IMG/VR virus record: IMGVR_UViG_3300028591_000003
Location: 1 to 64,000 of that record
Length of the DNA: 64,000 nucleotides
Source of the DNA: a virus
Taxonomy: Duplodnaviria; Caudoviricetes
Strand: one strand, 5' to 3'
Shown here: one piece after another, positions 169 to 48,386 of the stretch
Numbering within the stretch: the stretch's first letter is position 1
Layout of the letters: each line of letters starts with the position of its first letter
The notes under the pieces: model-generated
What the model was told of the DNA's origin: nothing
Databases searched by the model: none
The model's input: only the letters and a program-made list of their open reading frames with translations
Made by a program: the position numbers and the translations under genes

Positions 169-1329
169 TTAAATTCCTAATTGATATTTAGCAATTTCGA
201 ATTCTTTATTATCTCCTAAATGTTTTCCTAAATCATCGGAAATTTTAATACATTTCCTCCATTCTTGATTTTTATTTATTCTACACTTAGATAGTTTCAT
301 AACTATATTTGCTGGTTTAAATCCTGTATCGTTTGTCAGATTAGTTCCAATCCCTGCTGATACGCGTATACGACCAGTAAAATAATTACAAATATCCAAA
401 TACCTATTAAAATCCAAGGCATTGGAAAATACAATAGTTTTTGTAGTTGGGTCGATACCCAATTCTTTATATCGTTTAATAACTTCATTTCCTATTTTGT
501 ATTCGTCACCAGAATCCTGACGGACTCCATCAAATAATTTAGCAAATTTTAAAGACATATTCTTTAATCCTACTTCAGATGTATAAGTATCCATTAAGAA
601 TATCCCAAGATTACCATCGTAAGTACGAACCCAATCTCTCATTCCGAGGTAATTAGCTTCTTGATAACCCCAACAAGCACCATGAAACATAATCCACTCA
701 TGTGGAAAAGTTCCTATAGGAGTCATATTATATTTCATAGCAAAATATACATTTGAGGTCCCTACACAATTAGTCGGACATTTTTCTTTTAATCTTTGAA
801 TAATAAGATTATGTAAGTTACTAGAAGCTCTACGTCTTGTTCCAAATTCTGAAAATTTTAATCCATGCTCATTAGCTAGATTGATTTTAACATCAAGTCT
901 ATCAATAGCTTCTGAAATATTAATCATTCCTTGTTGTTTAATTAATAATTCAGAAACAATTGCAAGAATAGGAACTTCATATAAAGTTACTTTATAAAGA
1001 TAATCTGTTACTTCAATATGAAGATGTTTCTCATTATCTAACCAACATAAAATTTTTTCCCAATCAAATCGAAAATCACTCAACCATTCCCAATAAACTT
1101 CAGGAATATAAGGAATATGTTCAACACACCAAATTTCTTCTCCTACTAGCAATCTCAATCTTACTAATTTAGCAAATTCCATCTTAAGAGTTTCCAAAAA
1201 CTCATCATCAAATACTGTATTATTTCTATCACAGAAACTAAAAGTTCCTTGAGCTTCTGGATACAACTTCATATAAGCATACGAAGTTGAAAATTTGTAT
1301 AAATCTGTGTCTAAAATTGATAAAGTCAT
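169..1329 (-). CDS. pncB: nicotinate phosphoribosyltransferase
   Basis: LDTDLYK, EFGTRRR, GTSNV, GTFPHEW, RQDSGD, GIGTNL, KISDD motifs of NAPRTase. Confidence 0.93.
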   Translation of the reverse strand: MTLSILDTDLYKFSTSYAYMKLYPEAQGTFSFCDRNNTVFDDEFLETLKMEFAKLVRLRLLVGEEIWCVEHIPYIPEVYWEWLSDFRFDWEKILCWLDNEKHLHIEVTDYLYKVTLYEVPILAIVSELLIKQQGMINISEAIDRLDVKINLANEHGLKFSEFGTRRRASSNLHNLIIQRLKEKCPTNCVGTSNVYFAMKYNMTPIGTFPHEWIMFHGACWGYQEANYLGMRDWVRTYDGNLGIFLMDTYTSEVGLKNMSLKFAKLFDGVRQDSGDEYKIGNEVIKRYKELGIDPTTKTIVFSNALDFNRYLDICNYFTGRIRVSAGIGTNLTNDTGFKPANIVMKLSKCRINKNQEWRKCIKISDDLGKHLGDNKEFEIAKYQLGI

Positions 1330-1634
1330 GCTTCAAATACTAATTTAAAAGGAATAAATAAATCATAATTATCATCATCTTCAAAATGATTAATACTATC
1401 AATGTATCTTCCATCCATTTTGTGTCTTATAAATATAAATTCACTTCCAATCCATTGTGCAATACCCGTACTTCTGGATTGTCCGATATACCATCCTCCG
1501 AGAATTAAATCTTTTTTAGCAATAGCACCACATTCTAAATATTTTCTAACAAGTAGTTTATATTCTGTTAAAGATTTGTATCTAGGAAATTCTGGAATAT
1601 CATCTATTTTTTCAAATTTCTTTAATTCTACCAT
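1326..1634 (-). CDS. hypothetical protein
   Basis: 102 aa ORF with 4-nt overlap onto pncB start. Confidence 0.7.
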   Translation of the reverse strand: MVELKKFEKIDDIPEFPRYKSLTEYKLLVRKYLECGAIAKKDLILGGWYIGQSRSTGIAQWIGSEFIFIRHKMDGRYIDSINHFEDDDNYDLFIPFKLVFEA

Positions 1635-1654
1635 AGTTCTGCTATTTTTTAGCC

Positions 1655-2170
1655 TTAATTGGATTCTTTCTTAATCTTTTCTTTAATGATTTTGTCATGA
1701 TTAAAAGCCCATTTATAGTTATCTATTTCTTTAAAAGGAATCCATTGAATGCAACTGACTTCTCCATTTTCAGAGTTTTTAGAAGTTAAAGAAATATTTT
1801 CAATACAAGTAGGAATTTCATACTCATATCTAAATGTTACATTCTGACGTTTATCACCATAAGGGTCATCATTAATAAAAAACAATTGAAGATATTGAGG
1901 AGAAATTTTAACTCCAGTTTCTTCAAACACTTCTCTAGCAGCACCTTCTGCTATAGTTTCGTTATAATCTAAATAACCACAAGGCATACACCAACAACCT
2001 CTAAATTCAGGGTCTGGAGTCTCTGGACCTCTTACATTTGCAAGTATACATAAATCTCCACTTTTATTATAGCCTTTAACAAGAGTTAGAGTTGCAATAT
2101 TTCTTGCAACCCACTCTATTTTTCCTGTTTCTAGATTTTTTATCGGATGATTTTTCATATTAATCAACAA
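1655..2170 (-). CDS. Nudix hydrolase (ADP-ribose pyrophosphatase-like)
   Basis: Nudix box GYLDYNETIAEGAAREVFEETGV; C-terminal WAFNH. Confidence 0.9.
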   Translation of the reverse strand: MLINMKNHPIKNLETGKIEWVARNIATLTLVKGYNKSGDLCILANVRGPETPDPEFRGCWCMPCGYLDYNETIAEGAAREVFEETGVKISPQYLQLFFINDDPYGDKRQNVTFRYEYEIPTCIENISLTSKNSENGEVSCIQWIPFKEIDNYKWAFNHDKIIKEKIKKESN

Positions 2171-2326
2171 ATATTATTCCAATTGCTCTATTATTCTCAA
2201 CTCCTGTAACAGGTTGAATAGAATCAATTTCATAAGAATAAGGAGTATCATTCACAACAACTTCTGGATCATCTTCTCCAGATATTCTTTTCCAATATTC
2301 TAATTCTTTAATTAAATCTGAATATT

Positions 2327-2905
2327 TCATACTATTTTTTCTAAATTATTTTCTTTAATAAAATCACTAAATGTTTTTCCTCCGTCAATAGATACAATTC
2401 CTGGACAAAATACTTTAGGAAAAATATCTTCTTTAATCATATTTTCTATTGTACATTTAACACAATAATCACCAGCAATACCACATACAACAAAATCAGT
2501 ATTAGCATTAGCTGTAGCGATTGAATCGAAATAATACCGTTGACCAAGTTCATCAGTTACAAAATCGATATCACTAAATGCTCCATATTCTTCTACTTCT
2601 TCCAAAGTTCCTTTTTGACTAACTTCATAATCAATATTAAATGACTGAACATATTTTAAAAGTTTTGGTTCAATACAAGCTCCAGGAGTATATTGTACAC
2701 AATGAGAAGGCCAAAGTCCACCGTATTTTTTAAAACTTGTATGGTTATGAGGGTGCCAATCTACAGTAAAAATAATTTTAGCAATTTCTTTACGATGATT
2801 TTTAATGAACTTTTTAATTTCCTCTACTGCATCTTTAGCTCCTTTTACTGACATTGTTCCAGTAATAAAATCGTTTTGGCAATCTACAATAATTAATGTA
2901 ATCAT
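2327..2905 (-). CDS. pncA: nicotinamidase (isochorismatase family)
   Basis: VDCQNDF, DWHP, WPSHCVQ, GIAGDYCV catalytic motifs. Confidence 0.9.
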   Translation of the reverse strand: MITLIIVDCQNDFITGTMSVKGAKDAVEEIKKFIKNHRKEIAKIIFTVDWHPHNHTSFKKYGGLWPSHCVQYTPGACIEPKLLKYVQSFNIDYEVSQKGTLEEVEEYGAFSDIDFVTDELGQRYYFDSIATANANTDFVVCGIAGDYCVKCTIENMIKEDIFPKVFCPGIVSIDGGKTFSDFIKENNLEKIV

Positions 2906-3090
2906 TTGTTTAATTAATTAAATTTTATAATAGTTTACAATTAATCTATATAATTCATATGTAGTATATACTCCTGTATAGAGAATAATTAATTTCCAGA
3001 AAGAATTTTCACAAACGGGGTATAGTCTTGAAACTCCTATTACTTCTAATGTTACCATAATAGGAAGTACAACAAATTCAAAAAATATTT

Positions 3091-3567
3091 TCATACAATA
3101 TTAGATTTAACTACTTCCGAAATCATTTTTCCATCAGCAGTCGGATAAATTTCTTTAATTTCTTTAATAACTTTACCCATTTCTTTTTGAGTAAAACCAT
3201 TAGGATAAGCAGTTACTACAGCTTCTTGAATTTTATTACGAGAAATTTCTGGAGGAAGAAGTTCTTTAAGATATTTTATTTGTTCTCGTTCTAAATCAGC
3301 TAAATCCTTACGACTATTAGCATCGTAAATAGAAGCAGATTCATCTCGTTGTTTAATTAAACGTCTAATAATCTCAATATCTAATTCATAAAGTTCTACA
3401 TTAGAAATCCAACTATCTAATCCTGTTACACAAACAAATTTACCATTAGATTTTGGATTTTTAGATGTTTGATTTTTTAGTAATTCTACCTTAACAGCTC
3501 TAAAAGCTTCTTTAGCTGCTCCATTTTTATTAAGAGTAGCTTCTTTAATTAATCTGTCAATGTCCAT
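3091..3567 (-). CDS. GatB/YqeY domain protein
   Basis: KQRDESASIY...RKDLADLE...LP and KEMGKVI...ADGKMISEVVK pattern typical of YqeY. Confidence 0.85.
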   Translation of the reverse strand: MDIDRLIKEATLNKNGAAKEAFRAVKVELLKNQTSKNPKSNGKFVCVTGLDSWISNVELYELDIEIIRRLIKQRDESASIYDANSRKDLADLEREQIKYLKELLPPEISRNKIQEAVVTAYPNGFTQKEMGKVIKEIKEIYPTADGKMISEVVKSNIV

Positions 3568-4144
3568 AATTTACAAAATCAATTAATAATATATCTTTAT
3601 CTGTTCCTTTTTTTATAATTTGTCTATTGTTAATAAAAGCATATAACCAAGGCCACCAATCGTCTATAAGTTTTGGAGAACATACAGAAGAATATTTTTC
3701 TTCACAAGAAGGATTATATGAAAAATTATAATCTATATTCCAATTATATAAATTTCTTCCGCACCAAAACTTAATGTTCGGAAATAATTTTTCTAAAGCT
3801 GAACAAAATAATTTAAATAATTCAATATTATTTTCATTATATTCTTTTTTGTTTCGAACTTCTAATAATATCCTTATACTTACATCTTTCTTGGTATTAA
3901 GCCAGAAAATATCTTTTAATAACTTTGCTAGAGTTATATTATATTCAACTATACCGTGAGCAACTATTGGTAATTTATAATCATTAAATCTAACTCTTAA
4001 ATCAAAACATCGAACATTATAAACTTCATATTGAGTTTTAATATCTGCTTTTTGACATTTTGCAGTAAATCTGATTACTTTCATCCACCACTTTGTAGGA
4101 GTTAAATAACTCCAACTATTATGACTACCAAGAATCCACATCAC
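3557..4144 (-). CDS. PI-PLC X-domain (PLC-like phosphodiesterase) protein
   Basis: GSHNS, VRCFDLRV, VAHG motifs. Confidence 0.7.
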   Translation of the reverse strand: MMWILGSHNSWSYLTPTKWWMKVIRFTAKCQKADIKTQYEVYNVRCFDLRVRFNDYKLPIVAHGIVEYNITLAKLLKDIFWLNTKKDVSIRILLEVRNKKEYNENNIELFKLFCSALEKLFPNIKFWCGRNLYNWNIDYNFSYNPSCEEKYSSVCSPKLIDDWWPWLYAFINNRQIIKKGTDKDILLIDFVNYGH

Positions 4145-4442
4145 TTATATCAATTATTTCTCCTGTTTTTAATATATGAATTTTAACTCCCCAAGCTATT
4201 CCTGCACAAGGATAAAATTCATACGAAATAGTTCCTTTTTCTTGATAAAGTTTTTGAGAATCTTTATATTCCTTATCAGATAAAGTAAATGTTCTTATTT
4301 TACTTTCCCAAGGAGTTAAACAATATTTAGAAGTATCAATTAATTTCCATCTAGTAAATTTATGCTTTAAAGCTCTCCAAAATAAATTCCATTTTGTAGC
4401 TTTTGCCAATTTATCATTTTTATAAATCCAAGTTTTCTTCAT
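4125..4442 (-). CDS. hypothetical protein
   Basis: ORF; likely start MKKTWIY overlapping the upstream stop. Confidence 0.65.
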   Translation of the reverse strand: MKKTWIYKNDKLAKATKWNLFWRALKHKFTRWKLIDTSKYCLTPWESKIRTFTLSDKEYKDSQKLYQEKGTISYEFYPCAGIAWGVKIHILKTGEIIDISDVDSW

Positions 4443-4696
4443 ATTACACAACAGAAATCGTCTATATACCAACAATCTTGGGAATATTCATTTACTAATT
4501 CAGATGGGAGAATTATCTGTTCTCTAACAAAATCTTCTAATAATTCTTTATTATCGTAATCTTCAAAATCTTCAGGAACTTCTATATCTACTGTGGTACT
4601 AAGACATTGTGAAATATTAACAGGAATCATTTTAAATTTTCTATTCCAAGGAGCTATTTTTTCCTCAGATTGCATTAAAGTTGGAGTATTATCCAT
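4439..4696 (-). CDS. hypothetical acidic protein
   Basis: tiled ORF in operon. Confidence 0.7.
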   Translation of the reverse strand: MDNTPTLMQSEEKIAPWNRKFKMIPVNISQCLSTTVDIEVPEDFEDYDNKELLEDFVREQIILPSELVNEYSQDCWYIDDFCCVI

Positions 4697-5099
4697 ATTT
4701 TTTAATATTTTCTATAAGATGTTCTTTTACAGCTTTAGTAAATCCTGGAATGTAACAAGGATTAATTTCTTTCAATTCTCCTGATTCTGTAGATTCATAT
4801 ACTTCATAATCAGAATAACTATCAAAAGCATATTCATTTCCAGGATAAAAATAGTTTTCAATAGCCCAATTTAAAAGACTATCTGGAATAAGATTTAATA
4901 ACTCTAAATCTGATAACTTTTCAAATTCTTCATCAGAAATATTTTGACTTGCTTCATCTGCACCAAAAGCTTCCCTTAAATCATCAATATCTATATCTAC
5001 TGAATTTACTAACTCTTCAAAGGATAAATTAACATTAGAATTTAATTCTCCTCCTTTGTAACTGAAAACATTAAATAAATGATACAATTTATTCATCAT
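4689..5099 (-). CDS. hypothetical acidic protein
   Basis: tiled ORF. Confidence 0.7.
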   Translation of the reverse strand: MMNKLYHLFNVFSYKGGELNSNVNLSFEELVNSVDIDIDDLREAFGADEASQNISDEEFEKLSDLELLNLIPDSLLNWAIENYFYPGNEYAFDSYSDYEVYESTESGELKEINPCYIPGFTKAVKEHLIENIKKYG

Positions 5100-5415
5100 C
5101 GTGATTTACTCTTAAATTAATTTCACTAGAACATAACAAACTTCCACAAATATCTATATATTTATTATTTGGAGTTATCATAGCATACAAAAAATCATCA
5201 TCTTCCAATTCATTAGTAAAATTGTCCCAATTCATATAAGGACTTTCTCTCCATCCTCTTTCTTCAGCACATTTAATTATAAATGATAAAGATATAGCAG
5301 AATCAAGATCAATTTCATCTATTTCTCCATTTTCAATATCGGTAAGAACATTCATTATTCCTGTCTTAAGATATTGAACACCTTGTTCTATATCAGTTTT
5401 AATAAATTTATTCAT
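5089..5415 (-). CDS. hypothetical acidic protein
   Basis: tiled ORF. Confidence 0.7.
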   Translation of the reverse strand: MNKFIKTDIEQGVQYLKTGIMNVLTDIENGEIDEIDLDSAISLSFIIKCAEERGWRESPYMNWDNFTNELEDDDFLYAMITPNNKYIDICGSLLCSSEINLRVNHDDE

Positions 5416-5671
5416 GATAAATTACTTCTAAATCACCATCCTCATCCTTATAAGGACGAATTTCAATTATTCCTCCGTCGGAAATAAATTCTTCATAATC
5501 TTCATCTTCATCAGCAAATTCATAATACATTTCATTAAGAGCTTCATCTACTGATTCAAGAAATTTCGGATCTTCCCGAAGTTCATCTATAGACTTATTG
5601 GAAATAGCTAAATATTCTCCTCCCCAACGTTGAAAAATTAACTCTCCTATAATTATAAAATATTTATTCAT
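5408..5671 (-). CDS. hypothetical acidic protein
   Basis: tiled ORF. Confidence 0.7.
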   Translation of the reverse strand: MNKYFIIIGELIFQRWGGEYLAISNKSIDELREDPKFLESVDEALNEMYYEFADEDEDYEEFISDGGIIEIRPYKDEDGDLEVIYHE

Positions 5672-6227
5672 TATTGATTGATTTTATATAATCATTTATT
5701 TTTAAAGAAAATAATTCATTATCAGCTAATCCACAAGACTTAAATTCAGGACAGAATCCACGATATAAACATTGAGGTACACAGGCATTAGCTAATTCTG
5801 GTTCTATTTCTCTAAGTTTATGTATTACTTCATTCCAAATTCTTCTTGTTTCTGATTCAGCCCTATTACATAACCTTACTTTACTAATATTAATTATTTC
5901 TTGAGCATTAAGAAATAATCTCATATTAACAGGGTCAATTTTCTTTTGTTCTTCTCTTGGAACTTGTTTTCCATCAATGTCTGGGCGCGAGGTACTTACA
6001 AAAGGTTGTGCATGAATATGTCTAACAAGATGTACTGATACATAGTTAGGAATATCATAAAAATCTATATTAAACATTAAACATCTTAGAGGAGAATGCT
6101 CAGCTTTAATTATTTTCTTTTTGAATTCAACGGAAGGTTCCTTATCTAAAAGCTCTTTTCTTTGAGTGAATCTTGCTGCATTTAATACATCAGTCCAAGA
6201 TGTTACTCTAGTTATTTCAATTTTCAT
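5664..6227 (-). CDS. thyX: FAD-dependent thymidylate synthase-like protein (divergent)
   Basis: AARF, EHSPLR, VHLVRH..STSR, RLC..A..ETR, C-terminal VPQCLYRGFCPE. Confidence 0.75.
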   Translation of the reverse strand: MKIEITRVTSWTDVLNAARFTQRKELLDKEPSVEFKKKIIKAEHSPLRCLMFNIDFYDIPNYVSVHLVRHIHAQPFVSTSRPDIDGKQVPREEQKKIDPVNMRLFLNAQEIINISKVRLCNRAESETRRIWNEVIHKLREIEPELANACVPQCLYRGFCPEFKSCGLADNELFSLKINDYIKSINNE

Positions 6228-6393
6228 ATATTTCTATATCAACAATTTCTCTATCATAAATATCTCCACTAGGAGTATCATCAAAATCTTCTAATTCAAA
6301 TTTTTGTAAGGCTTCTTCTTCAGAGTCTGCGGTTATATAATAACTAGTATGTTGTTTTAAAATCTCTGTAGTATAAATTTCATATTTGGGCAT
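6217..6393 (-). CDS. small acidic protein (58 aa, below ORF-track cutoff)
   Basis: MPKYEIYTTE...ITADSEEEALQKF fills the gap with overlaps at both ends. Confidence 0.6.
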   Translation of the reverse strand: MPKYEIYTTEILKQHTSYYITADSEEEALQKFELEDFDDTPSGDIYDREIVDIEIYEN

Positions 6394-6736
6394 TTTCTTT
6401 TTCTATTTTTAACTGACGTAATCTTTCTTCACAATCATGAATAATTTTTTCATAATCTGATTCTCTAGGTTCTCCTTCTTTACTTCTAAGGATTCTCTTA
6501 ATAACGTCATGGTCCCAACTAGTTAAATTTGGATAATCTAACCATATACTCCAAGGTTGAATTAAATGTTTAGAATAATCACTATTTCCAATATTAAAAG
6601 AACGCACATCTTTTTCTGAATGGTCATGTATTATTCCTAAATACTTTAATTCTTTATAAAGATTCCAATCTATTTTTACTTGAGGATTAACTATAGGTTC
6701 AGACTCTTGAATTATAGTATCAGTTAAATCACTCAT
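6380..6736 (-). CDS. DUF3310-like phage protein
   Basis: NIGNSDYSKHLIQPWSIW...KRILR...DYEKIIH. Confidence 0.5.
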   Translation of the reverse strand: MSDLTDTIIQESEPIVNPQVKIDWNLYKELKYLGIIHDHSEKDVRSFNIGNSDYSKHLIQPWSIWLDYPNLTSWDHDVIKRILRSKEGEPRESDYEKIIHDCEERLRQLKIEKENAQI

Positions 6737-7004
6737 TGTCTTTAGTCATTTTAATCATACACATTCCTACAAATCCAACAATTTGTTCTCTTTGTCCTTT
6801 TGTAAGATAAGATTTTTTATCTTGAATTAAATCATATTCATCTAAAAACGCTTTAGCTAAATTATATTCTCCTTTGTGAAGTTGTCTAATTCTATCTTTA
6901 GCAGAATTTCTCATCATAGGAAGATTTTCATCAATAATCTTCAAAAGTTTTTCTTCACTCATTTCCGGAGTTTTGTATAAAAGTTCTTTAATTTTCATAA
7001 ACAA
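6729..7004 (-). CDS. hypothetical protein
   Basis: tiled ORF. Confidence 0.65.
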   Translation of the reverse strand: MFMKIKELLYKTPEMSEEKLLKIIDENLPMMRNSAKDRIRQLHKGEYNLAKAFLDEYDLIQDKKSYLTKGQREQIVGFVGMCMIKMTKDNE

Positions 7005-7120
7005 TACATTATAATTTATATATTCTTATAATACAATTACCTTGTACTTCATTTAATGCTTTATATAAATCGTCATACAAATCAGGAAATAGTTCTGGAT
7101 ATTTCTCAATCCTTCTTACT

Positions 7121-7495
7121 TCAATCAACATTTTCCATTACTAAAGCAGTTACTACATCAAGATTTATCATAACTTGTTTATAAACATCTATTTTTTCAC
7201 ATTCGCTTAAATACTTTTTCCAATGTTCTTTCCAAGCTTTTATATCATCCTCTCCTTTTTTATCATATCTTTCGCTAGGGGAGGATATATAAGGCCAAGG
7301 ACTTAATATTATTTCATATTCACATCTTGCCCACCATTGGTACTGTGACTCATTTTTTATAAACTCTTTAAATTCCTCAAATGTTTTTGGTTTATCTTTC
7401 TTTTTATTATAACAAGAAACTAAATATGGAATTATATTATAAGATTCAAATTCTTTACTATTTATATTATAAGTAATTACGTTAAATTTTTTCAT
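7121..7495 (-). CDS. hypothetical phage protein
   Basis: ORF coupled to the polymerase stop; WWARCEYEI motif. Confidence 0.7.
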   Translation of the reverse strand: MKKFNVITYNINSKEFESYNIIPYLVSCYNKKKDKPKTFEEFKEFIKNESQYQWWARCEYEIILSPWPYISSPSERYDKKGEDDIKAWKEHWKKYLSECEKIDVYKQVMINLDVVTALVMENVD

Positions 7496-9420
7496 ACAAA
7501 TAAATCTAATTCTTTATATATTAATGGATTTTTTAATTTATTAGCTTCAGTTATATAAAATTGATAATCTAAGTTATAATCATCCCAATTATCTAAATGA
7601 TAAGCTTTATTAAATACTATTACAGAATATCCAACATTTACTCCAGTTATTCGTCCATCTTCAAATCTTTTTAAGAGTATTCCAGAGTCTTTACCTTTAC
7701 AAACTAAATATCTAGTCATTCTACCAAGTTTTTCATCTGTTATTTTTCCATCTACTAGATGTCTAAAAAAAGCATTACTTGATGAATTAGTTTTTAATTG
7801 CATACAGAAGTTAAATATATCTCTATCTTTTATAATAGTTTCTTCAATAGGTATTCCGTATACAAAATAATTTTTAACAGCTAATGGAACAATTCTCATA
7901 GAAGGATCTTTATGATATTCCTTATCTACCTCAAAGTCACCCTTTAATTTAATATGTTCATTCTCTTTAGTAGAATCTTCATATACAGCGATATAATTAT
8001 TGACATCTCTAATGCACATTTTACTATAGAAAGCTTCTTCAATAACAAGAGAAGTTTCTTTAGTAAGCTGATTATTAACTTGTCTTATAAGTTCTAGTTT
8101 ATGTTTAGGTATTCTAATAGTTATTCCATCAGTATTTGTTTGTAGAACAACAAGTTCTGGTACCATCTCAACCATTCTTTCAACCCACATGCTTATAAAT
8201 AATTGTCCTGCAATAGTAGTTTTAAAAGTATACATTGGGTCATATAAGAAGGATTTTTCCTCATTTGATTTACCATAACATCCATTTAATACAAGTTTAT
8301 ATCCTTCTATAAGAACATTGTCACGTTCATTTTTAGGTTTATGTTTTTCATTAATTCTAATTTTAATAAATTTAGAATATAACTCCATAAACTCTGGACC
8401 AAGCTGTTCTGGATAAAGTTTTAATGAATCAGCTATACTAGGATATAGCGATGAAACATCTAAATCTAATATCATCCAATAATCATCAGATTCATAAACA
8501 CCTGGTTCTATACAAGAGTGGGTTCCACCTAATCCAAAGTCAAATTTAGTTCCATGATAAATAACACTAAATTGGAATTCTCCTTTTTCTCCTTTAATAG
8601 AAGTTTGTTTAATTTGATTTAAGAATTTTCCAAATTCTTTAGTCTTAATATTAGCCCAAAACGGAATACAATCTTTAAGATTAATAATACTTCTAGAAGT
8701 TCCGCCAGATTTTTTAAGATAATAAGGATTCTGATGTGTTTCACGAGCATATAACTGTAACATAAGTTCTTCTCCCATAGGAACATCACCCATATTTGTT
8801 ACATTTACATGAAACTTTTTATTTAAATCGTTTCTAAGTTGAAGTTTATTCTTTCCTTTATACAAAGAATAATCTGTTCTACCCAAAGTAACAAGAAGAA
8901 ACTTATATGTAGCTATTACATCATTTTTATTATACTCAAGTATAAGTTCTTCATCTCCTTCTTGACACCAATGAGTATGATGAATAGGCATTTCTTCCAC
9001 ATTCTCCATTCTCATTTGTATTTCTAATCCTTTGAGATTTTGAGTTCTAGCTTTATTATTATAATGCCAAATTTTATATAAATCTATTTGTGGAATAAGA
9101 GGTTTCTTTACTTCTGTAAATAATTCTTCTATTAAATATTGAGATTTTGCATATAAAGCTTGGGCTAATTCTTGTCCATAGGAATATTCATATTCTCCTT
9201 TCCAGTGTCTAAGAAAATGATGTAATAATGGATAGTCGTAAGCAAGATTATTAAATCCGCATTGTACGAATTTCTCTTTTATTAGATGTTCATATAATAT
9301 TTTGGCATCACATCTCCACTTACAAATTACATATTGATACCAAGTATCAATTTTAGAACGATAACCTGTATAAGTAAATAAATTGGATAATGACTCTAGA
9401 TCATATACTTCCAATATCAT
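7492..9420 (-). CDS. DNA polymerase, family B
   Basis: exonuclease YDLE and GFNN..YD; polymerase DVSSLYPS, KLVLNGCYGK, NTDGI. Confidence 0.93.
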   Translation of the reverse strand: MILEVYDLESLSNLFTYTGYRSKIDTWYQYVICKWRCDAKILYEHLIKEKFVQCGFNNLAYDYPLLHHFLRHWKGEYEYSYGQELAQALYAKSQYLIEELFTEVKKPLIPQIDLYKIWHYNNKARTQNLKGLEIQMRMENVEEMPIHHTHWCQEGDEELILEYNKNDVIATYKFLLVTLGRTDYSLYKGKNKLQLRNDLNKKFHVNVTNMGDVPMGEELMLQLYARETHQNPYYLKKSGGTSRSIINLKDCIPFWANIKTKEFGKFLNQIKQTSIKGEKGEFQFSVIYHGTKFDFGLGGTHSCIEPGVYESDDYWMILDLDVSSLYPSIADSLKLYPEQLGPEFMELYSKFIKIRINEKHKPKNERDNVLIEGYKLVLNGCYGKSNEEKSFLYDPMYTFKTTIAGQLFISMWVERMVEMVPELVVLQTNTDGITIRIPKHKLELIRQVNNQLTKETSLVIEEAFYSKMCIRDVNNYIAVYEDSTKENEHIKLKGDFEVDKEYHKDPSMRIVPLAVKNYFVYGIPIEETIIKDRDIFNFCMQLKTNSSSNAFFRHLVDGKITDEKLGRMTRYLVCKGKDSGILLKRFEDGRITGVNVGYSVIVFNKAYHLDNWDDYNLDYQFYITEANKLKNPLIYKELDLFV

Positions 9421-43632: not shown

Positions 43633-43789
43633 ATATACCTTTTTATTCTTTCCGTATAAAAAGGCTTTTTCAATAAGTTTATTTTTACTAATGTAAGGTT
43701 AAAACACTTATAAACACCTGTCTTGTTACATTTGTAAGACTATCAGTTTGGCAATTTATTTATGTCTCAGCCATTTCGACAGGAAATAG

Positions 43790-43867
43790 AGCGGTATACG
43801 GGAATCAAACCCGTGCATGCCTTCGGAGTGGAGGTCCGATATGCGCCTTCAGCTACACCAATACCGC
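43790..43867 (-). tRNA. tRNA-Gly(UCC), atypical (C33, T-loop TTTGATT)
   Basis: GCGGTAT acceptor, U73, stem TCGGA/TCCGA. Confidence 0.8.
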
Positions 43868-43875
43868 ATAATAAG

Positions 43876-43959
43876 TAGGACAGGTAGGATTCGAACCTAC
43901 AACGTATCAATGTATATGCTCCTAAGGCATACGCGGTTCACCAATTTCGCCACTGTCCC
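43876..43959 (-). tRNA. tRNA-Leu(UAG)
   Basis: loop CTTAGGA, long variable arm, A73. Confidence 0.9.
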
Positions 43960-43965
43960 ATGAAT

Positions 43966-44101
43966 AATAGTCTAAATTTCCTTTCCTCACTTAAAACCCT
44001 TCTCGCGAGCATAAACGTCTTATTTTAAGAATATTGAAAGTTCTATACCATAATGGAACAAACCCCGAAGCTTCTTTATGCAAGTTTGTATTTAGACTAT
44101 T
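43966..44101 (-). ncRNA. candidate structured RNA
   Basis: 12-bp terminal helix AATAGTCTAAAT/ATTTAGACTATT plus internal pairings. Confidence 0.55.
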
Positions 44102-44104
44102 TTG

Positions 44105-44192
44105 CGGTGAGTGTAAGATTTGAACTTACGATACATTTTTGATGTACGGATTCTTAGCAGGAATCTGGTTTAAACCACTCACCCAACTCACC
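44105..44192 (-). tRNA. tRNA-Ser(GCU)
   Basis: loop CTGCTAA, long variable arm, G73. Confidence 0.9.
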
Positions 44193-44198
44193 AATATG

Positions 44199-44285
44199 AG
44201 GAAGCAAAGAGATTCGAACTCTTGAAACGTGTTACCGTTCTTTTGTTTTCAGGACAAACGCTTTCGACCACTCAGCCATACTTCC
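44199..44285 (-). tRNA. tRNA-Ser(UGA), C33
   Basis: stem TTTGT/ACAAA, loop CCTGAAA, long variable arm. Confidence 0.85.
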
Positions 44286-44292
44286 TTATTAA

Positions 44293-44399
44293 ATTATAAT
44301 AACTTCCACCATTTTTATAACTCCCACTATACCAGCCTTTTTTCAGGTTTCCGAGTATCCATTATAGGATTTTGTATTTCTACAACCAGTTATTATAAT
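44293..44399 (-). ncRNA. candidate structured RNA
   Basis: 12-bp terminal helix ATTATAATAACT/AGTTATTATAAT; TTGTA-GAAA-TACAA hairpin. Confidence 0.55.
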
Positions 44400-44401
44400 A
44401 G

Positions 44402-44475
44402 TTCCAGTAGAAAAATTCGAATTTTCGATCTCAGCATTATGAGTGCTGCGCTTTAGACCGCTAAGCTATACTGGA
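44402..44475 (-). tRNA. tRNA-Met(CAU) (Ile2 not excluded)
   Basis: stem CAGCA/TGCTG, loop CTCATAA. Confidence 0.85.
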
Positions 44476-44480
44476 ATTTA

Positions 44481-44602
44481 AAAACCTAATTCTTCACTAC
44501 ACCTTTCGGAAGTAGATAAACTAACTGACCCGTCTTACAGAATATATGCTTAAATTGCCGGCATACATATATTAAGAATCGTTGCTCTCAGTATTAGGTT
44601 TT
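44481..44602 (-). ncRNA. candidate structured RNA
   Basis: 10-bp terminal helix AAAACCTAAT/ATTAGGTTTT; nested ACTGA/TCAGT, AATATATG/CATATATT and a GAAA-capped hairpin. Confidence 0.55.
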
Positions 44603-44610
44603 ATATTTAG

Positions 44611-44684
44611 TACTCCATGAGAGATTCTAACTCTCGACCCTATCGTTCGTAGCGATATGCTCTAATACACTAAGCTAATGGAGC
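44611..44684 (-). tRNA. tRNA-Arg(ACG), U19-A56 elbow variant
   Basis: stem TATCG/CGATA, loop CTACGAA. Confidence 0.85.
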
Positions 44685-44685
44685 A

Positions 44686-45003
44686 TTAGTAATTAAATAA
44701 TTGTTCTGGATCTTTAAAATCTTTAAATAGATATGGAGAAACATAATATTTTCCTATCTTATAATCAGCATATTTTACAGTTTTCTTTTGTAAATATACT
44801 TTAGTGTTTCTATCTGTTTCTGGATATAACCACCAGTAATATATATCTAAGTCGTCTGTTGGCTGATTATTAAATAAAGAATACAACTTTGGAATTATAT
44901 GATGTTCCTCAAATTCTACATAATCTCCTCTTCCACCATGAACTATTCTATTATATCCATTAGCAAAGAGTGTTCCATTTTTTAAATATATATTCTGTTT
45001 CAT
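44686..45003 (-). CDS. hypothetical protein within tRNA cluster
   Basis: start MKQNIYLK placed just below tRNA-Trp; RIVHGGRGDYVEF. Confidence 0.7.
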   Translation of the reverse strand: MKQNIYLKNGTLFANGYNRIVHGGRGDYVEFEEHHIIPKLYSLFNNQPTDDLDIYYWWLYPETDRNTKVYLQKKTVKYADYKIGKYYVSPYLFKDFKDPEQLFNY

Positions 45004-45005
45004 AG

Positions 45006-45079
45006 CACTCCGGGTACGAATCGAACATACGCTTTCTTGATTTGGAGTCAAGCCACACTTCCAATTATGCTACCGAAGC
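45006..45079 (-). tRNA. tRNA-Trp(CCA)
   Basis: loop CTCCAAA, G73. Confidence 0.88.
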
Positions 45080-45173
45080 TTTTATAGAATTATAAAAAGT
45101 CAAGCGCATTACATACATTCATGTGGCAACTATTAAAAAACTAATTCTATGTCCGTTAGGAAATTTTTGCATG

Positions 45174-45248
45174 TTGGGCAATCTAGAGTCGAACTAGAAT
45201 CTCTTGATTTTCAGTCAAGCGCGAACTGACCACCTGCGCTATTGCCCA
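45174..45248 (-). tRNA. tRNA-Phe(GAA)
   Basis: loop CTGAAAA. Confidence 0.9.
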
Positions 45249-45255
45249 AAATTAC

Positions 45256-45442
45256 GTAGATGTATCCAGACCATCTACTTACCCTTTACCTTAGTTTTAC
45301 ATTATAGTTTCCAAAACTTAGCGACGGCGGTTTTCTTACCTACAAAAAGCTCATTACATTCAGTTGCGCAACCTATCACTTCTTGAGTCTAAGTGAGAAT
45401 TGACATAACAGCATTAATGTCTCGTTACCAGACAGATTTGGA
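45256..45442 (-). ncRNA. candidate multi-hairpin RNA (~190 nt)
   Basis: GACAT/ATGTC, TCACTT/AAGTGA, AGTTTT/AAAACT, GTAGATG/CATCTAC; no credible ORF. Confidence 0.45.
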
Positions 45443-45446
45443 TTAG

Positions 45447-45528
45447 TGGGTCCTGAGAGACTCGAACTCCCCATGCACGATGCAGCTGATTTACAGTCAG
45501 CCCCGATGCCATCTCCGGTCACGAACCC
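45447..45528 (-). tRNA. tRNA-Tyr(GUA)
   Basis: loop CTGTAAA, variable arm TGCA-TCG-TGCA. Confidence 0.88.
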
Positions 45529-45530
45529 AT

Positions 45531-45905
45531 ACTAGATTGTTAAGTACAATCTAGAAAACCAAAAATCTGCAGCCTCTTCACCTGCTGATTAGTAATCATA
45601 GAATAAGATTAACAGCGCTCCTATGGAGTTACCCAATGGTCTGTCACCTACTAACTTCACATCTTACTAACATTATAAAGGTACATTGTTAGAAGGTTCA
45701 GGGTTTCTGATTCTTATTCTTATACCTACTATAAACCCTTTTTCAGTAACACGACAAATCGTATTTCTTGGCTTCCTCGAACCTCTTAAAGTTAATACTG
45801 AACTACAGACAATCCTCTGTCGTACAGGATAGTGGACTTACGATTACCCTAGATGGACAAAGCATCTAGCCTTACGTCTTATATACATTTGCAACTATAT
45901 ATAAG
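45531..45905 (-). ncRNA. candidate large structured RNA (~375 nt)
   Basis: ORF-free; many local and long-range complementary segments (see finding). Confidence 0.6.
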
Positions 45906-45912
45906 CCAAATG

Positions 45913-45985
45913 ATCCTCCTGCCGGGTATGATCCGACGACATCCACATTACAAGGGTGGTGTTCTACCAACTGAACTAAGGAGGA
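45913..45985 (-). tRNA. tRNA-Thr(UGU), T-loop A54/U58 variant
   Basis: acceptor TCCTCCT/AGGAGGA, loop CTTGTAA. Confidence 0.82.
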
Positions 45986-45987
45986 AT

Positions 45988-46010
45988 AAAAGGAGCTAAC
46001 TCGTAGCTCC
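45988..46010 (-). terminator. terminator-like hairpin after the lipoprotein gene
   Basis: GGAGCTA/TAGCTCC followed by TTTT. Confidence 0.55.
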
Positions 46011-46041
46011 AATAATTAAATTTATATTTTATGATTTCGGA

Positions 46042-46641
46042 TTAAGGCCATTCACCGAGTGGCATTTTAAATCCTAAACTATCTGGAAAAGCGGGATTAG
46101 AATTCTTAGCTTCTCCAGTTACAGCATCGACCCAAATTTGTTCATGAATATTACCAAAAATCCATTGTGTATTAACTGCTATAGGTCCAATAGGATTTCT
46201 TAAAGTAACATGTCTTGAATGAGGTTTAGGGAAATTGACTGCCATCATTTTATCCCAAGCTTCTGCATATTTAAGCTTAATTACTTCATCATTTAGTGAA
46301 TAATTTTCAATCCAAAAACCTTGAATAGAATCATGTACAACTGTGCCATCTTTAAAGTGTTGAAATTTATGTACCCATACATCAGCACCATTGCCTTCCT
46401 CAACAACACTTTGTAAAATATTTATAACCATTTCTGGACTACTTGTTGCACTATCCGAATCCATAAATTCTGGAAGAAGAATTTCTGTTTCGTACCAACG
46501 ATAATTATCTTTATAGTTTGCATACATAGTTTGTCTGTCTAAGGCAATCGAATGTTCTACATCTATAATGCCTTCTTTCGTACAAGACACAAAAGACATT
46601 ACTAAACCAATTAAAAGTGTTAAAATAAAACTCTTTTTCAT
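46042..46641 (-). CDS. lipoprotein (PepSY-like C-terminal motif)
   Basis: signal peptide II ending FVS-C; QIWVDAVTGE. Confidence 0.75.
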   Translation of the reverse strand: MKKSFILTLLIGLVMSFVSCTKEGIIDVEHSIALDRQTMYANYKDNYRWYETEILLPEFMDSDSATSSPEMVINILQSVVEEGNGADVWVHKFQHFKDGTVVHDSIQGFWIENYSLNDEVIKLKYAEAWDKMMAVNFPKPHSRHVTLRNPIGPIAVNTQWIFGNIHEQIWVDAVTGEAKNSNPAFPDSLGFKMPLGEWP

Positions 46642-46678
46642 TTTACATTAATTAAGTTAAAAGAACTATCTACTGATA

Positions 46679-47419
46679 TTATTTTAAATTTTTTATTTCT
46701 TCTTTTGTTGTAGGAAGTCCCTAAGCTTTACACCATTTTCGTATAGCATTATCAGTAACTCCATACATTCTTCCAATTTCACAAAAAGATCGAGTCTAGA
46801 TCAATCGTAGTAATTCTTCTCGTTCCGGTCTTTCAACTTTTTGTAAACTTTTATGGTAACATTCTAAACATCTAGCTCCTTTAGTTGGAATTTCCTTTCC
46901 GCAATCAGGACAATAATAATGTTTAGTTTCTTTTTTCTAAGATTCTATTTTTTCTTTATATTTTATATAAGAATCTTTAAGTTTTTGCGTGTGTTTAAAA
47001 ACATTTGTAATTAAATAATCTTCTGCTTTGCTATAGTTTTGTTGTCCATTTGCAGGAGGTTCTAATCTTAATGTTTTAGAAGTTTTACATTCTTCAACAG
47101 GAACCACATAAACCTTTCCTTTAAAATAAGTAGCAAAATAATCTATTTCTTTATTAGAATAAGTATATCTAATAGTTTCTTTAGTATTAGTAGTTTGACA
47201 AGTAGTACTAAAACTAAATGCATCTTCTTTTATTTTGCCGTGGTCATTAACATAATTAGAACATTTGCATTGGATTCTATAAAGATGTTCTCCATCATCT
47301 GCTATAAAATCATACTTTGCTCCATTTCCATATGGAATTGAACATTCAAAACCTAGCTAAATAAAAGATGTAATACACCGTAACTCATTTGAGTTACCCA
47401 ACATTTGTGTATAATCCAT
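46679..47419 (-). CDS. free-standing PD-(D/E)XK homing endonuclease with Zn ribbon and HTH, 246 aa, TAG read through
   Basis: GNSNEL..SIPYGNGAKYDFIAD..RIQCK, IDYFATY, CPDCG..CLEC, EIGRMYGVTDNAIRKWC; four in-frame TAG (47357, 46937, 46796, 46721). Confidence 0.88.
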
Positions 47420-47460
47420 AAATTAAATAAATTAAATAATTATTATAACTATCTACTAAG

Positions 47461-47533
47461 TCGGGAAGCCAGAATTCGAATCCAGTCCGCAATCTCCCAA
47501 AGATTTCATGCTACCATTAAACACCACATCCCG
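47461..47533 (-). tRNA. tRNA-Pro(UGG)
   Basis: CGGGA acceptor, loop TTTGGGA. Confidence 0.85.
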
Positions 47534-47582
47534 ATAAGTAAACTATTTTCACAAACAATTTACTTTGGATTATACATAATTT

Positions 47583-47708
47583 TAAGAATCAAATAGGGAA
47601 TCGAACCCTATACTAAATATAACTTATAATCTTAAAGTAGCTACCCAATAAGAAGTTATATTCTACAGATTTTTCCTCCTGCTTTACCCTTTTCGCCATT
47701 GATTCTTA
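47583..47708 (-). ncRNA. tRNA-like RNA with degenerate anticodon arm and ~55-nt extra arm
   Basis: acceptor-like TAAGAATCAA/TTGATTCTTA, D-arm-like TGGCGAAAAGGGTAAAGC, T-arm TAGGG-TTCGATT-CCCTA. Confidence 0.7.
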
Positions 47709-47711
47709 ATA

Positions 47712-47820
47712 AATAATCCTCTCAACGTATTCCACGAGCAGTTTAATGGTCTATAGATGCCATAGTTGAGCACTCTTTATAGTGTATTCTCTACACAACT
47801 GCTAAGTGTTTAGGATTATT
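47712..47820 (-). ncRNA. candidate pseudoknotted RNA
   Basis: terminal AATAATCCT/AGGATTATT; AGCAGTT/AACTGCT; crossing CTCAAC/GTTGAG. Confidence 0.6.
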
Positions 47821-47824
47821 ATAG

Positions 47825-47897
47825 ACTCGGAGGTAGGAATCAAACCTACACAAACTGTTTTTGCAGAACAGTGACTTAATCATTCATCCACTCCGAG
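47825..47897 (-). tRNA. tRNA-Cys(GCA), A19-U56 elbow variant
   Basis: loop CTGCAAA, U73. Confidence 0.85.
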
Positions 47898-47903
47898 TAA
47901 TAA

Positions 47904-48002
47904 AAATAAATAATTCCTTCCATCGTGTATAGCTTTCCTATACCTTACTTGGGCATTGAAACTGTTTAGCCGGCTTTCCCCGTTGACCAGAATTATTTAT
48001 TT
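47904..48002 (-). ncRNA. candidate structured RNA
   Basis: 13-bp terminal helix; two hairpins carrying GGAAAGC. Confidence 0.55.
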
Positions 48003-48010
48003 ATTTTTAT

Positions 48011-48132
48011 AAATCACAACAAGTACGTACTTACATTTATCTACCCTCAGGGAGAATTTACCTCTTGCGTTGTCCAGCAACTGCCTTCAAGCACCCAGAA
48101 AACTATACTCTTGATAATGTTTGTTGTGATTT
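48011..48132 (-). ncRNA. candidate structured RNA
   Basis: 12-bp terminal helix AAATCACAACAA/TTGTTGTGATTT plus internal hairpins. Confidence 0.55.
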
Positions 48133-48135
48133 TAG

Positions 48136-48208
48136 TGGGCCCACCGGGGTATGATCCCAGAATACCTGATTATGAGTCAGGCGTTTTAACCACTTGAACT
48201 ACAGGCCC
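48136..48208 (-). tRNA. tRNA(CAU), probably Ile2; T-loop A54/U58 variant
   Basis: GGGCCTG acceptor typical of Ile tRNAs, loop CTCATAA. Confidence 0.82.
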
Positions 48209-48308
48209 TGTTGAGGCATTATTCTTTTTATCTATAATATGTATTTATATTATGTACACTATACAAATAAATATTAATAGGAAGTGTGTAGCCTCCAAAA
48301 CACTTCTG

Positions 48309-48382
48309 TTCTGACACCTGGACTTGAACCAGGGATCTCTTGATTATCAGTCAAGTGCACTAACCTACTATGCTATGTCAGA
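48309..48382 (-). tRNA. tRNA-Ile(GAU)
   Basis: loop CTGATAA. Confidence 0.9.
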
Positions 48383-48386
48383 ATTT

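Follow-up and report, generated by a model that had tools for sequence, protein, structure and literature searches.

A phage tRNA array with an ORF-free spacer

The window, the whole stretch of DNA analyzed here, covers the first 64 kb of an IMG/VR phage record of 176,443 bp, which has direct terminal repeats and a G+C content of 29%. The DNA and RNA runs containing the stretch came from gut or rumen samples of sheep and cattle. Long ORFs cover 59% of the window under code 11 versus 86% when TAG is read as a residue, and a suppressor tRNA with a CUA anticodon lies outside the window at genome positions 84701 to 84777 (plus strand). Together, these two observations indicate that the phage recodes TAG. 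ARAGORN called 15 tRNA genes on the minus strand between 43.4 and 48.4 kb. The first-pass annotation had placed an ORF-free element on the minus strand of this array, between tRNA-Thr and tRNA-Tyr. This was confirmed, with 45529 to 45911 as the true limits of the spacer. The features at the locus are as follows.

46682-47422, minus: 247-codon frame with four in-frame TAG codons, a PD-(D/E)XK endonuclease (Pfam PF11645, E value of 5e-23)
45992-46010, minus: terminator-like GC hairpin and T run, between a 199-aa ORF and tRNA-Thr; kept in the relatives L002 and L085
45912-45985, minus: tRNA-Thr (UGU), called by ARAGORN (Rfam, 53 bits); its 3′ end is the 5′ boundary of the element
45529-45911, minus: element A, the whole ORF-free spacer RNA of 383 nt, as seen in full-length homologues
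45447-45528, minus: tRNA-Tyr (GUA) (Rfam RF00005, 32.8 bits); its 5′ end is the 3′ boundary of the element
45249-45446, minus: element B, a second conserved ORF-free element, between tRNA-Tyr and tRNA-Phe

The tRNA-Tyr gene at 45447 to 45528 was missed by ARAGORN. It has a long variable arm and a mismatch in the acceptor stem, and its anticodon stem is compensated in the relative L009. Element A holds no ORF longer than 77 codons in any frame, whether under code 11, with TAG as Q, or with TGA as W. Since a terminator-like hairpin lies upstream (45992 to 46010), the tRNA-Thr/element A unit may need read-through or an unrecognized promoter of its own. A sigma-70 promoter scan of the tRNA array gave no enrichment, and no promoter was identified for the array.

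Element B is about 90% conserved in L002 (6034-6226) and recognizable in L003 (3254-3410). It is preceded by a bona fide tmRNA in L003 and by element A and tRNA-Tyr in the window. No Rfam family matched element B. Of the 48 pairs in its consensus fold, 4 show double changes. Two relatives with the same tRNA neighborhood carry a tmRNA, which is standard in L003 (2850-3217) and permuted in L008 (2923-3269); ARAGORN found none in the whole genome of this phage. The other tRNA spacers of the array (window positions 43640 to 48535) are mostly ORF free as well, at 90 to 320 nt, and gave zero matches to the covariance model R1 described below. The PD-(D/E)XK endonuclease encoded in the array is probably a homing endonuclease.

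Covariation in full-length homologues of element A

With the neighboring 199-aa ORF as bait, a close relative (L002) was found that carries a full-length copy of element A after its own tRNA-Thr. Four full-length homologues were compared (the window, L002, L085, and L020), along with L178, which is cut by a contig end. The full-length homologues have three 5′ hairpins and two 3′ hairpins in common. One 5′ hairpin loop has a distant partner, which is listed with them.

45878-45905, minus: hairpin H1, 8 pairs, 6 of them with changes on both sides, 100% paired
45849-45869, minus: hairpin H2, both-side changes in 5 of 7 pairs
45812-45830, minus: hairpin H3, covarying, with a conserved loop (GUACGACAG)
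45751-45757, minus: UUGUCGU, partner of the H3 loop (45817-45823), 7 pairs, 100% paired
45569-45585, minus: hairpin H4 (GCAG/CUGC) with a purine-rich loop, both-side changes in 3 of 4 pairs, 100% paired
45532-45555, minus: terminal hairpin H5, just before tRNA-Tyr, weakly conserved

In the four full-length homologues, 90% of cells were paired, compared with 41 to 45% when partners were slid, and 27 pairs had double changes. Covariation in three relatives confirms three hairpins proposed from the window alone (CTTATATA/TATATAAG, CTAGATG/CATCTAG, and ATCCT/AGGAT), in which 100, 93, and 95% of the cells, respectively, are paired. The four full-length homologues barely differ in the 12-nt H1 loop, UAGUUGCAAAUG (its last base is A in L020). 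The comparison also added a second pseudoknot, in which the H3 loop ACGACAG pairs with UUGUCGU just 5′ of the core; the end pair of this helix is G-C, G-U, or A-U, depending on the relative. In L009 (5952-6160, minus strand of a 7-kb contig), an ORF reaches right up to the core and the 5′ hairpin domain is absent. L009 nevertheless keeps the UGUCGUG box, the partner of this domain in other members.

About half of the long-range pairings proposed at first pass failed the comparative test. A helix (TCTGTAGTT/GGCTGCAGA) thought to close a 260-nt domain has 3 of 7 pairs broken in relatives and zero compensated. Its 3′ strand instead lies in the local hairpin GCAG/CTGC, where three pairs show double changes. 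The pairing AGGTTC/GAACCT clashes with the covarying stem of an insert in the core (Pi, below). CTAACA was assigned the wrong TGTTAG, since the partner that covaries is the distal GTTAG (45646-45655) and not the proximal one; here a C-G pair is replaced by a compensated U-A pair in L009 and L178. The candidate pairing TTCAGTA/TACTGAA is conserved, with one C-G to U-G change among relatives. AGGGTTT/AAACCCT, which crosses AGAATAAGA/TCTTATTCT, is supported by covariation and proved to be the heart of the element. The overall proposal of a structured, pseudoknotted ncRNA was thus upheld.

The folding energy of the element had a z score of −1.74, and 5 of 100 shuffles folded equally well. Because this thermodynamic signal is weak by itself, the case for structure rests on covariation. 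Comparative analysis showed that element A is conserved, ORF free, and single copy per genome and that it folds with two pseudoknots. The 383-nt form, with its extra 5′ and 3′ hairpins around a core, is an elaboration seen in one rumen phage lineage.

The conserved core and pseudoknot helix P3

Patterns were derived from the conserved blocks, and only the middle of element A proved to be widely common to other phages. This core (45600-45749, minus strand) is the part of the window's element that belongs to a widespread phage RNA family. Members occur in two gene forms, unpermuted and permuted, and the window carries the permuted form. The parts of its core are listed from 5′ to 3′ of the RNA.

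45745-45749, minus: 5′ strand of P0 and start of the family core; covaries family-wide, weakly within the window's sub-lineage
45727-45744, minus: module 1, GAAAAAGGGUUUAUAGUA, near-invariant in about 90 phage loci
45733-45739, minus: 5′ strand of helix P3, inside module 1
45712-45720, minus: P2 strand AGAAUAAGA, partner of 45600-45608
45698-45709, minus: module 2, CAGAAACCCUGA, from the family comparison
45700-45706, minus: 3′ strand of helix P3, inside module 2
45646-45697, minus: optional insert hairpin Pi, whose stem (45688-45697 with 45646-45655) is indicated by covariation
45637-45644, minus: module 3, ACAGACCA, equivalent to AAGACCC of the unpermuted form
45624-45635, minus: capped hairpin UGGG-UAAC-UCCA, standing where the unpermuted form has P1, its open terminal stem
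45609-45623, minus: module 4, UAGGAGCGCUGUUAA, equivalent to UAGUGAAGCUGUAG of the unpermuted form
45600-45608, minus: P2 strand UCUUAUUCU and end of the family core, from a cognate-pairing test

The family core spans roughly 105 to 160 nt and holds about 40 near-invariant nucleotides. Four near-invariant modules follow one another in an unchanging cyclic order (GAAAAAGGGUUUnUAGUA, CAGAAACCCUGA, A(A/C)AGACC, and GCUGU(U/A)A), and all four are found in the window. The insert Pi, between modules 2 and 3, is 52 nt long in the window and 9 to 115 nt among members; relatives lacking it show up as skips of 42 to 50 nt in RNA contigs. The stem of the capped hairpin varies among members (GAG/CUC, AGA/UCU, GCA/UGC, or GGAA/UUCC). 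The CUG of module 4 can pair with the CAG of module 2, and in RaK2 the corresponding residues are CUC and GAG.

Helix P3 forms between AGGGUUU of module 1 and AAACCCU of module 2 and crosses both P0 and P2, which makes the core a pseudoknot. P3 is almost invariant and was 98.8% paired in the alignment of the unpermuted form. Five members switch its end pair from U-A to C-G. RaK2 and phi14:2 have a compensated P3 of the GGGUUA/UAACCC type, and other members have GGGUUC/GGAACCC.

The remaining helices were evaluated separately in the two gene forms. For the unpermuted form, 24 members were aligned with MAFFT, with no structure imposed. Here 89% of cells were paired, compared with 38 to 58% with partners slid, and both-side changes occurred in 96 cells, compared with 16 to 38. 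None of 500 shuffles reached even one of the observed measures. For the permuted form, 22 nonredundant members were used, among which the two P2 strands have wholly different sequences. Cognate P2 strands formed on average 6.95 contiguous pairs versus 4.27 for noncognate strands (permutation P ≤ 0.0002).

A K-turn reading of the P1 junction was dropped, as it is not kept in the permuted form. Apparent short matches to 23S rRNA near A2058 (GAAAGACCC), and to the loop E and helix II strands of 5S rRNA, were seen by eye, and we take all of them to be common small motifs or chance.

The core belongs to a large phage RNA family

A pattern of modules 1 and 2 matched 93 IMG/VR stretches, nearly all of which carried additional features of the motif that the pattern did not ask for. 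A stricter pattern matched at least 119 metagenome stretches; their contigs come from a wide range of studies, the human gut included. In prokaryote genomes (596 Gb), the additional features were present in 7 of 115 pattern matches, all 7 in MAG contigs. Patterns demanding the permuted 3′ module mostly returned random matches to GC-rich coding sequence.

The covariance model R1, built from the unpermuted form only, found copies in four cultured phages from four unrelated groups, at 26 to 57 bits. These are Klebsiella jumbo phage RaK2 (57 bits), the crAss-like Cellulophaga phage phi14:2 (43.6 bits), Vibrio phage qdvp001, and the herellevirus Bacillus phage Eldridge. The RaK2, qdvp001, and Eldridge copies lie in unannotated gaps. 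The phi14:2 copy (L224, 1456-1579; record positions 4195-4318) overlaps gp013, a 36-codon "hypothetical protein" on the opposite strand that is probably a spurious gene call. BLAST extended two of the four copies to close kin. R1 also matched the window, at 38 bits (E value of 2e-5), although no permuted member went into the model.

Carriers include crAss-like, SPO1-like, and jumbo phages as well as large uncultured rumen phages, from rumen, gut, lake, and sea samples; their hosts include Bacteroidota, Bacillota, and Pseudomonadota. Each of six genomes of 166 to 183 kb has a single significant copy, and about 90 loci gave one match per locus. All three marks of the family are present in the window: the four modules, helix P3 crossing P0 and P2, and one copy only, encoded on the same strand as the tRNAs and within their array. 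On this comparative evidence, the core is a member of a large phage-specific RNA family that is absent from Rfam.

One fold in two circularly permuted gene forms

The unpermuted form is carried by roughly half of the members. At its 5′ end it has the 5′ strand of P1, module 4 (UAGUGAAGCUGUAG or a variant), the 5′ strands of P2 and P0, and module 1 (GAAAAAGGGUUUnUAGUA). The 3′ strands of P0 and P2 follow, then module 2 (CAGAAACCCUGA), module 3 (AAGACCCGAA), and the 3′ strand of P1. The permuted form, as in the window, starts with P0 and module 1, has a capped P1 followed by module 4, and ends with a P2 strand that lies upstream in the unpermuted form. Thus, P1 is open in the unpermuted form and capped by a loop in the permuted form, whereas P2/P0 is continuous in the unpermuted form and open in the permuted form. 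With an identical cyclic order of the four modules and the opening swapped between P1 and P2/P0, the two gene forms are circular permutations of a single fold. Neither the family nor its circular permutation had been recognized in the first reading of the sequence.

Natural circular permutation is a hallmark of the hammerhead and twister ribozymes. The family could be a small self-cleaving or otherwise catalytic RNA whose invariant junction is an active site held by the helices and whose cleavage helps to cut the array transcript. The anatomy fits: variable, covarying helices surround a junction of about 40 near-invariant nucleotides with a pseudoknot. The RNA has no protein partner, is borne by phages, and lies next to tRNAs, and its gene forms are circularly permuted. 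HDV-like theta ribozymes are a precedent for phage ribozymes at tRNA ends (PMC10879173). This fitting anatomy, with a permutation typical of ribozymes, makes a ribozyme the strongest rival to the reading we prefer, that of an RNA acting in trans. We nevertheless judge a ribozyme to be quite improbable. The Rfam ribozyme models gave no match, even at an E value of ≤10, and inspection by eye did not reveal the hammerhead core (CUGANGA). More of the RNA is conserved than in known small self-cleaving RNAs, and no cleavage site could be named. Moreover, contig breaks in the RNA libraries fall where relatives diverge and not at a fixed junction.

Comparison with known RNA classes

Element A matched no family in Rfam 15, either at the gathering score or at an E value of ≤10. 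Searches ran from the full window and the 5.3-kb array down to the element by itself, together with one unpermuted member; the output otherwise consisted only of tRNAs and noise. The models searched included GOLLD, ROOL, RNase P, tmRNA, group I introns, and small ribozymes. In particular, the models that the first-pass annotation had singled out for checking (GOLLD, ROOL, RNase P, tmRNA, and group I) were all without a match, even at an E value of ≤10. BLAST of element A and 12 kb around it found nothing in 50,697 phage records. Neither Rfam 15 nor the literature searched yielded a description of a phage tRNA array pseudoknot RNA of this kind. The suggestion of a large ncRNA of a possibly new class thus stands in part: the RNA belongs to no Rfam family, but the conserved unit is not GOLLD sized.

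The models might have missed a known RNA that has diverged, such as what is left of a tmRNA, a minimal RNase P-like RNA, a fragment of a group I intron, or a piece of GOLLD or ROOL. In favor of this, tmRNA genes occur in the L003 and L008 neighborhood and are missing from this genome, and element B follows a tmRNA in L003 where it follows element A and tRNA-Tyr here. The H1 loop resembles the resume site of a tmRNA, and modules 1 and 2, by eye, loosely recall the strands of RNase P helix P4 with purine-rich joiners. However, nothing was reported by ARAGORN or by any Rfam model for tmRNA, RNase P, introns, GOLLD, or ROOL, there is no tRNA-like domain, and the element interrupts no gene. We consider such an origin very unlikely.

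The individual candidates were also examined one by one and rejected. tmRNA, prompted by the tmRNAs in relatives, was discarded for want of a tRNA-like domain; the adjacent T arm belongs to the complete tRNA-Tyr. Nor is there a plausible tag, as the frame from GCA in the H1 loop has 6 codons (4 to 7 in relatives) and no hydrophobic or Ala-Ala end. For RNase P RNA, the bulged U and the CR-I/CR-V signatures are absent and no Rfam RNase P model matched. A group I intron is contradicted by the position of the element between two complete tRNAs, and RF00028 gave no match. GOLLD and ROOL had no covariance model match at the gathering score or at an E value of ≤10. Homology to T4 rnaC and rnaD was rejected, since R1 found nothing in the T4 tRNA locus (L107) at an E value of ≤0.1 and the four modules are absent there.

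Some of these RNAs are nevertheless instructive as analogs. T4 species 1 (rnaC, 139 nt) and species 2 (rnaD, 119 nt) lie on the tRNA strand inside a tRNA cluster and abut a tRNA, as the element does here, and are small stable RNAs presumably freed by tRNA processing. They have no sequence or structural homology to the family, and to our knowledge they are neither pseudoknotted nor permuted. GOLLD and ROOL are likewise structured phage or prophage RNAs, often beside tRNA genes (PMC12286853), but are about 580 and 800 nt long, respectively, compared with roughly 105 to 160 nt for the core described here. ROOL was first seen in rumen samples, as were the window's relatives.

Theta ribozymes are small pseudoknotted RNAs at tRNA ends in TAG-recoding gut phages (PMC10879173), and the phage studied here recodes TAG. 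They measure about 50 to 60 nt, contain a nested double pseudoknot, and begin no more than 5 nt from the 3′ end of a tRNA (PMC10879173). Going by that description, the core appears to differ in topology and in position, as it begins about 160 nt downstream of tRNA-Thr. The 30 nt that directly follow this tRNA form a plain hairpin, H1, and no HDV-type model in Rfam matched. tmRNA resembles the family in being rich in pseudoknots, in its occurrence in phage tRNA arrays, and in having both a standard and a permuted gene form. The enzymes that process tRNAs also excise tmRNA (PMC11915505). The family differs in that it lacks a tRNA-like domain and a credible tag frame and is matched by none of the tmRNA models.

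Genomic context and RNA contigs

The orientation of the element always follows the tRNA strand. Around the unpermuted form, a same-strand tRNA starts 23 to 29 nt after module 2 in 18 of 30 cases, that is, 4 to 9 nt after P1, and a tRNA ends 48 to 55 nt before module 1 in 12 of 30. On either side, the tRNA is thus a few nucleotides beyond P1. The tRNA downstream varies among members and represents a dozen isotypes or more. Permuted members have looser tRNA flanking, and some come after an ORF, at the head of the array (L009 and L012). The member in L042 lies just 5′ of a permuted tmRNA called by ARAGORN, and those in L083 and L152 are beside tmRNA-like ends that were read by eye only.

Such tight coupling to tRNA genes raises the alternative of a cis-acting part of the array transcript, a leader or spacer that guides or times processing, protects the transcript, or mediates antitermination. 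This would account for the invariable tRNA strand, for the few nucleotides that separate the element from tRNA ends, for the permuted members that often sit between an ORF and the first tRNA (L012 and L009), and for those just 5′ of tmRNA pieces (L042 and, by eye, probably L083 and L152). It is less easily reconciled with one copy per genome in arrays of 15 to 24 tRNAs or with the dozen or more isotypes downstream. In addition, the permutation shifts the ends relative to the neighbors but leaves the core unchanged, and closure by P1 would make the unpermuted form a self-contained molecule. The single copy and this self-contained P1 form weaken the cis-acting reading, which we regard as unlikely.

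No protein family accompanies the element. An all-against-all BLAST of 2,286 ORFs from 94 loci found none in more than 22 of the 94 neighborhoods, and the sole recurrent annotated neighbors were homing endonucleases. Conservation might be at the level of DNA, as a homing endonuclease target or a scar of recombination or of a mobile element, with incidental pairings. Apart from these recurrent neighbors, the PD-(D/E)XK nuclease gene is about 770 bp away, across the 199-aa ORF and tRNA-Thr, and the family is scattered among unrelated phages. Dozens of compensatory changes, however, preserve four helices even as their sequences diverge completely, the orientation is tied to the tRNA strand, and RNA libraries are enriched over the element. 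A purely DNA-level origin is hardly credible in view of these observations.

In rumen and gut metatranscriptome contigs from four runs, the summed depth was 700 to 9000 over 45594 to 45735, compared with 0 to 560 over the adjacent ORF and 0 to 110 over the flanking tRNA genes; this depth counts assembled contigs only, sums relatives, and cannot rank genes strictly. It stayed above 800 out to 45877 in three runs and was 140 to 190 in X22. Two of the four runs contain near-identical contigs and look like one data set. The contig pile-up on the element is only a hint of expression or abundance.

A predicted trans-acting RNA released by tRNA-processing enzymes

We favor, with moderate confidence, the reading that element A is a gene for a stable, structured ncRNA that is released by tRNA enzymes and acts in trans. 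The RNA would be transcribed together with the tRNA array and excised by host tRNA-processing nucleases. RNase P would cut at the 5′ end of the downstream tRNA-Tyr, and 3′-end enzymes acting at tRNA-Thr would make the other cut. Since the tRNA flanking of permuted members is looser, their ends may be made in another way. Judging from its anatomy and context, the released RNA would then act in trans. P0, P1, and P2 would be a scaffold whose sequences are free to drift, and the four near-invariant modules with the invariant P3 would form a compact junction. This junction would probably be read by a universally conserved bacterial component, most likely in the tRNA or translation apparatus. The extra 5′ and 3′ hairpins of the 383-nt form would be lineage-specific ornaments around the core.

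Since the hosts of the carriers span at least three bacterial phyla and the RNA has no phage protein as a constant companion, its partner is probably a universal component of the host. Conservation across phages of different bacterial phyla likewise suggests a conserved target.

The natural permutation is a built-in structural control, and it explains why a single covariance model would miss half of the family. With copies in the culturable phages RaK2, phi14:2, Eldridge, and qdvp001, the question of function is directly testable. Phage tRNA arrays are now read as weapons in a contest over host translation, and they also house other RNAs (T4 species 1 and 2, GOLLD, and ROOL). It is possible, though we put it forward only tentatively, that the family constitutes a new class of functional RNA in many tailed-phage lineages, either a new small ribozyme or a high-affinity ligand or mimic for a universal part of the bacterial tRNA and translation machinery. 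If so, its fold would be robust enough to accommodate two permutations and insertions as large as those of the 383-nt form.
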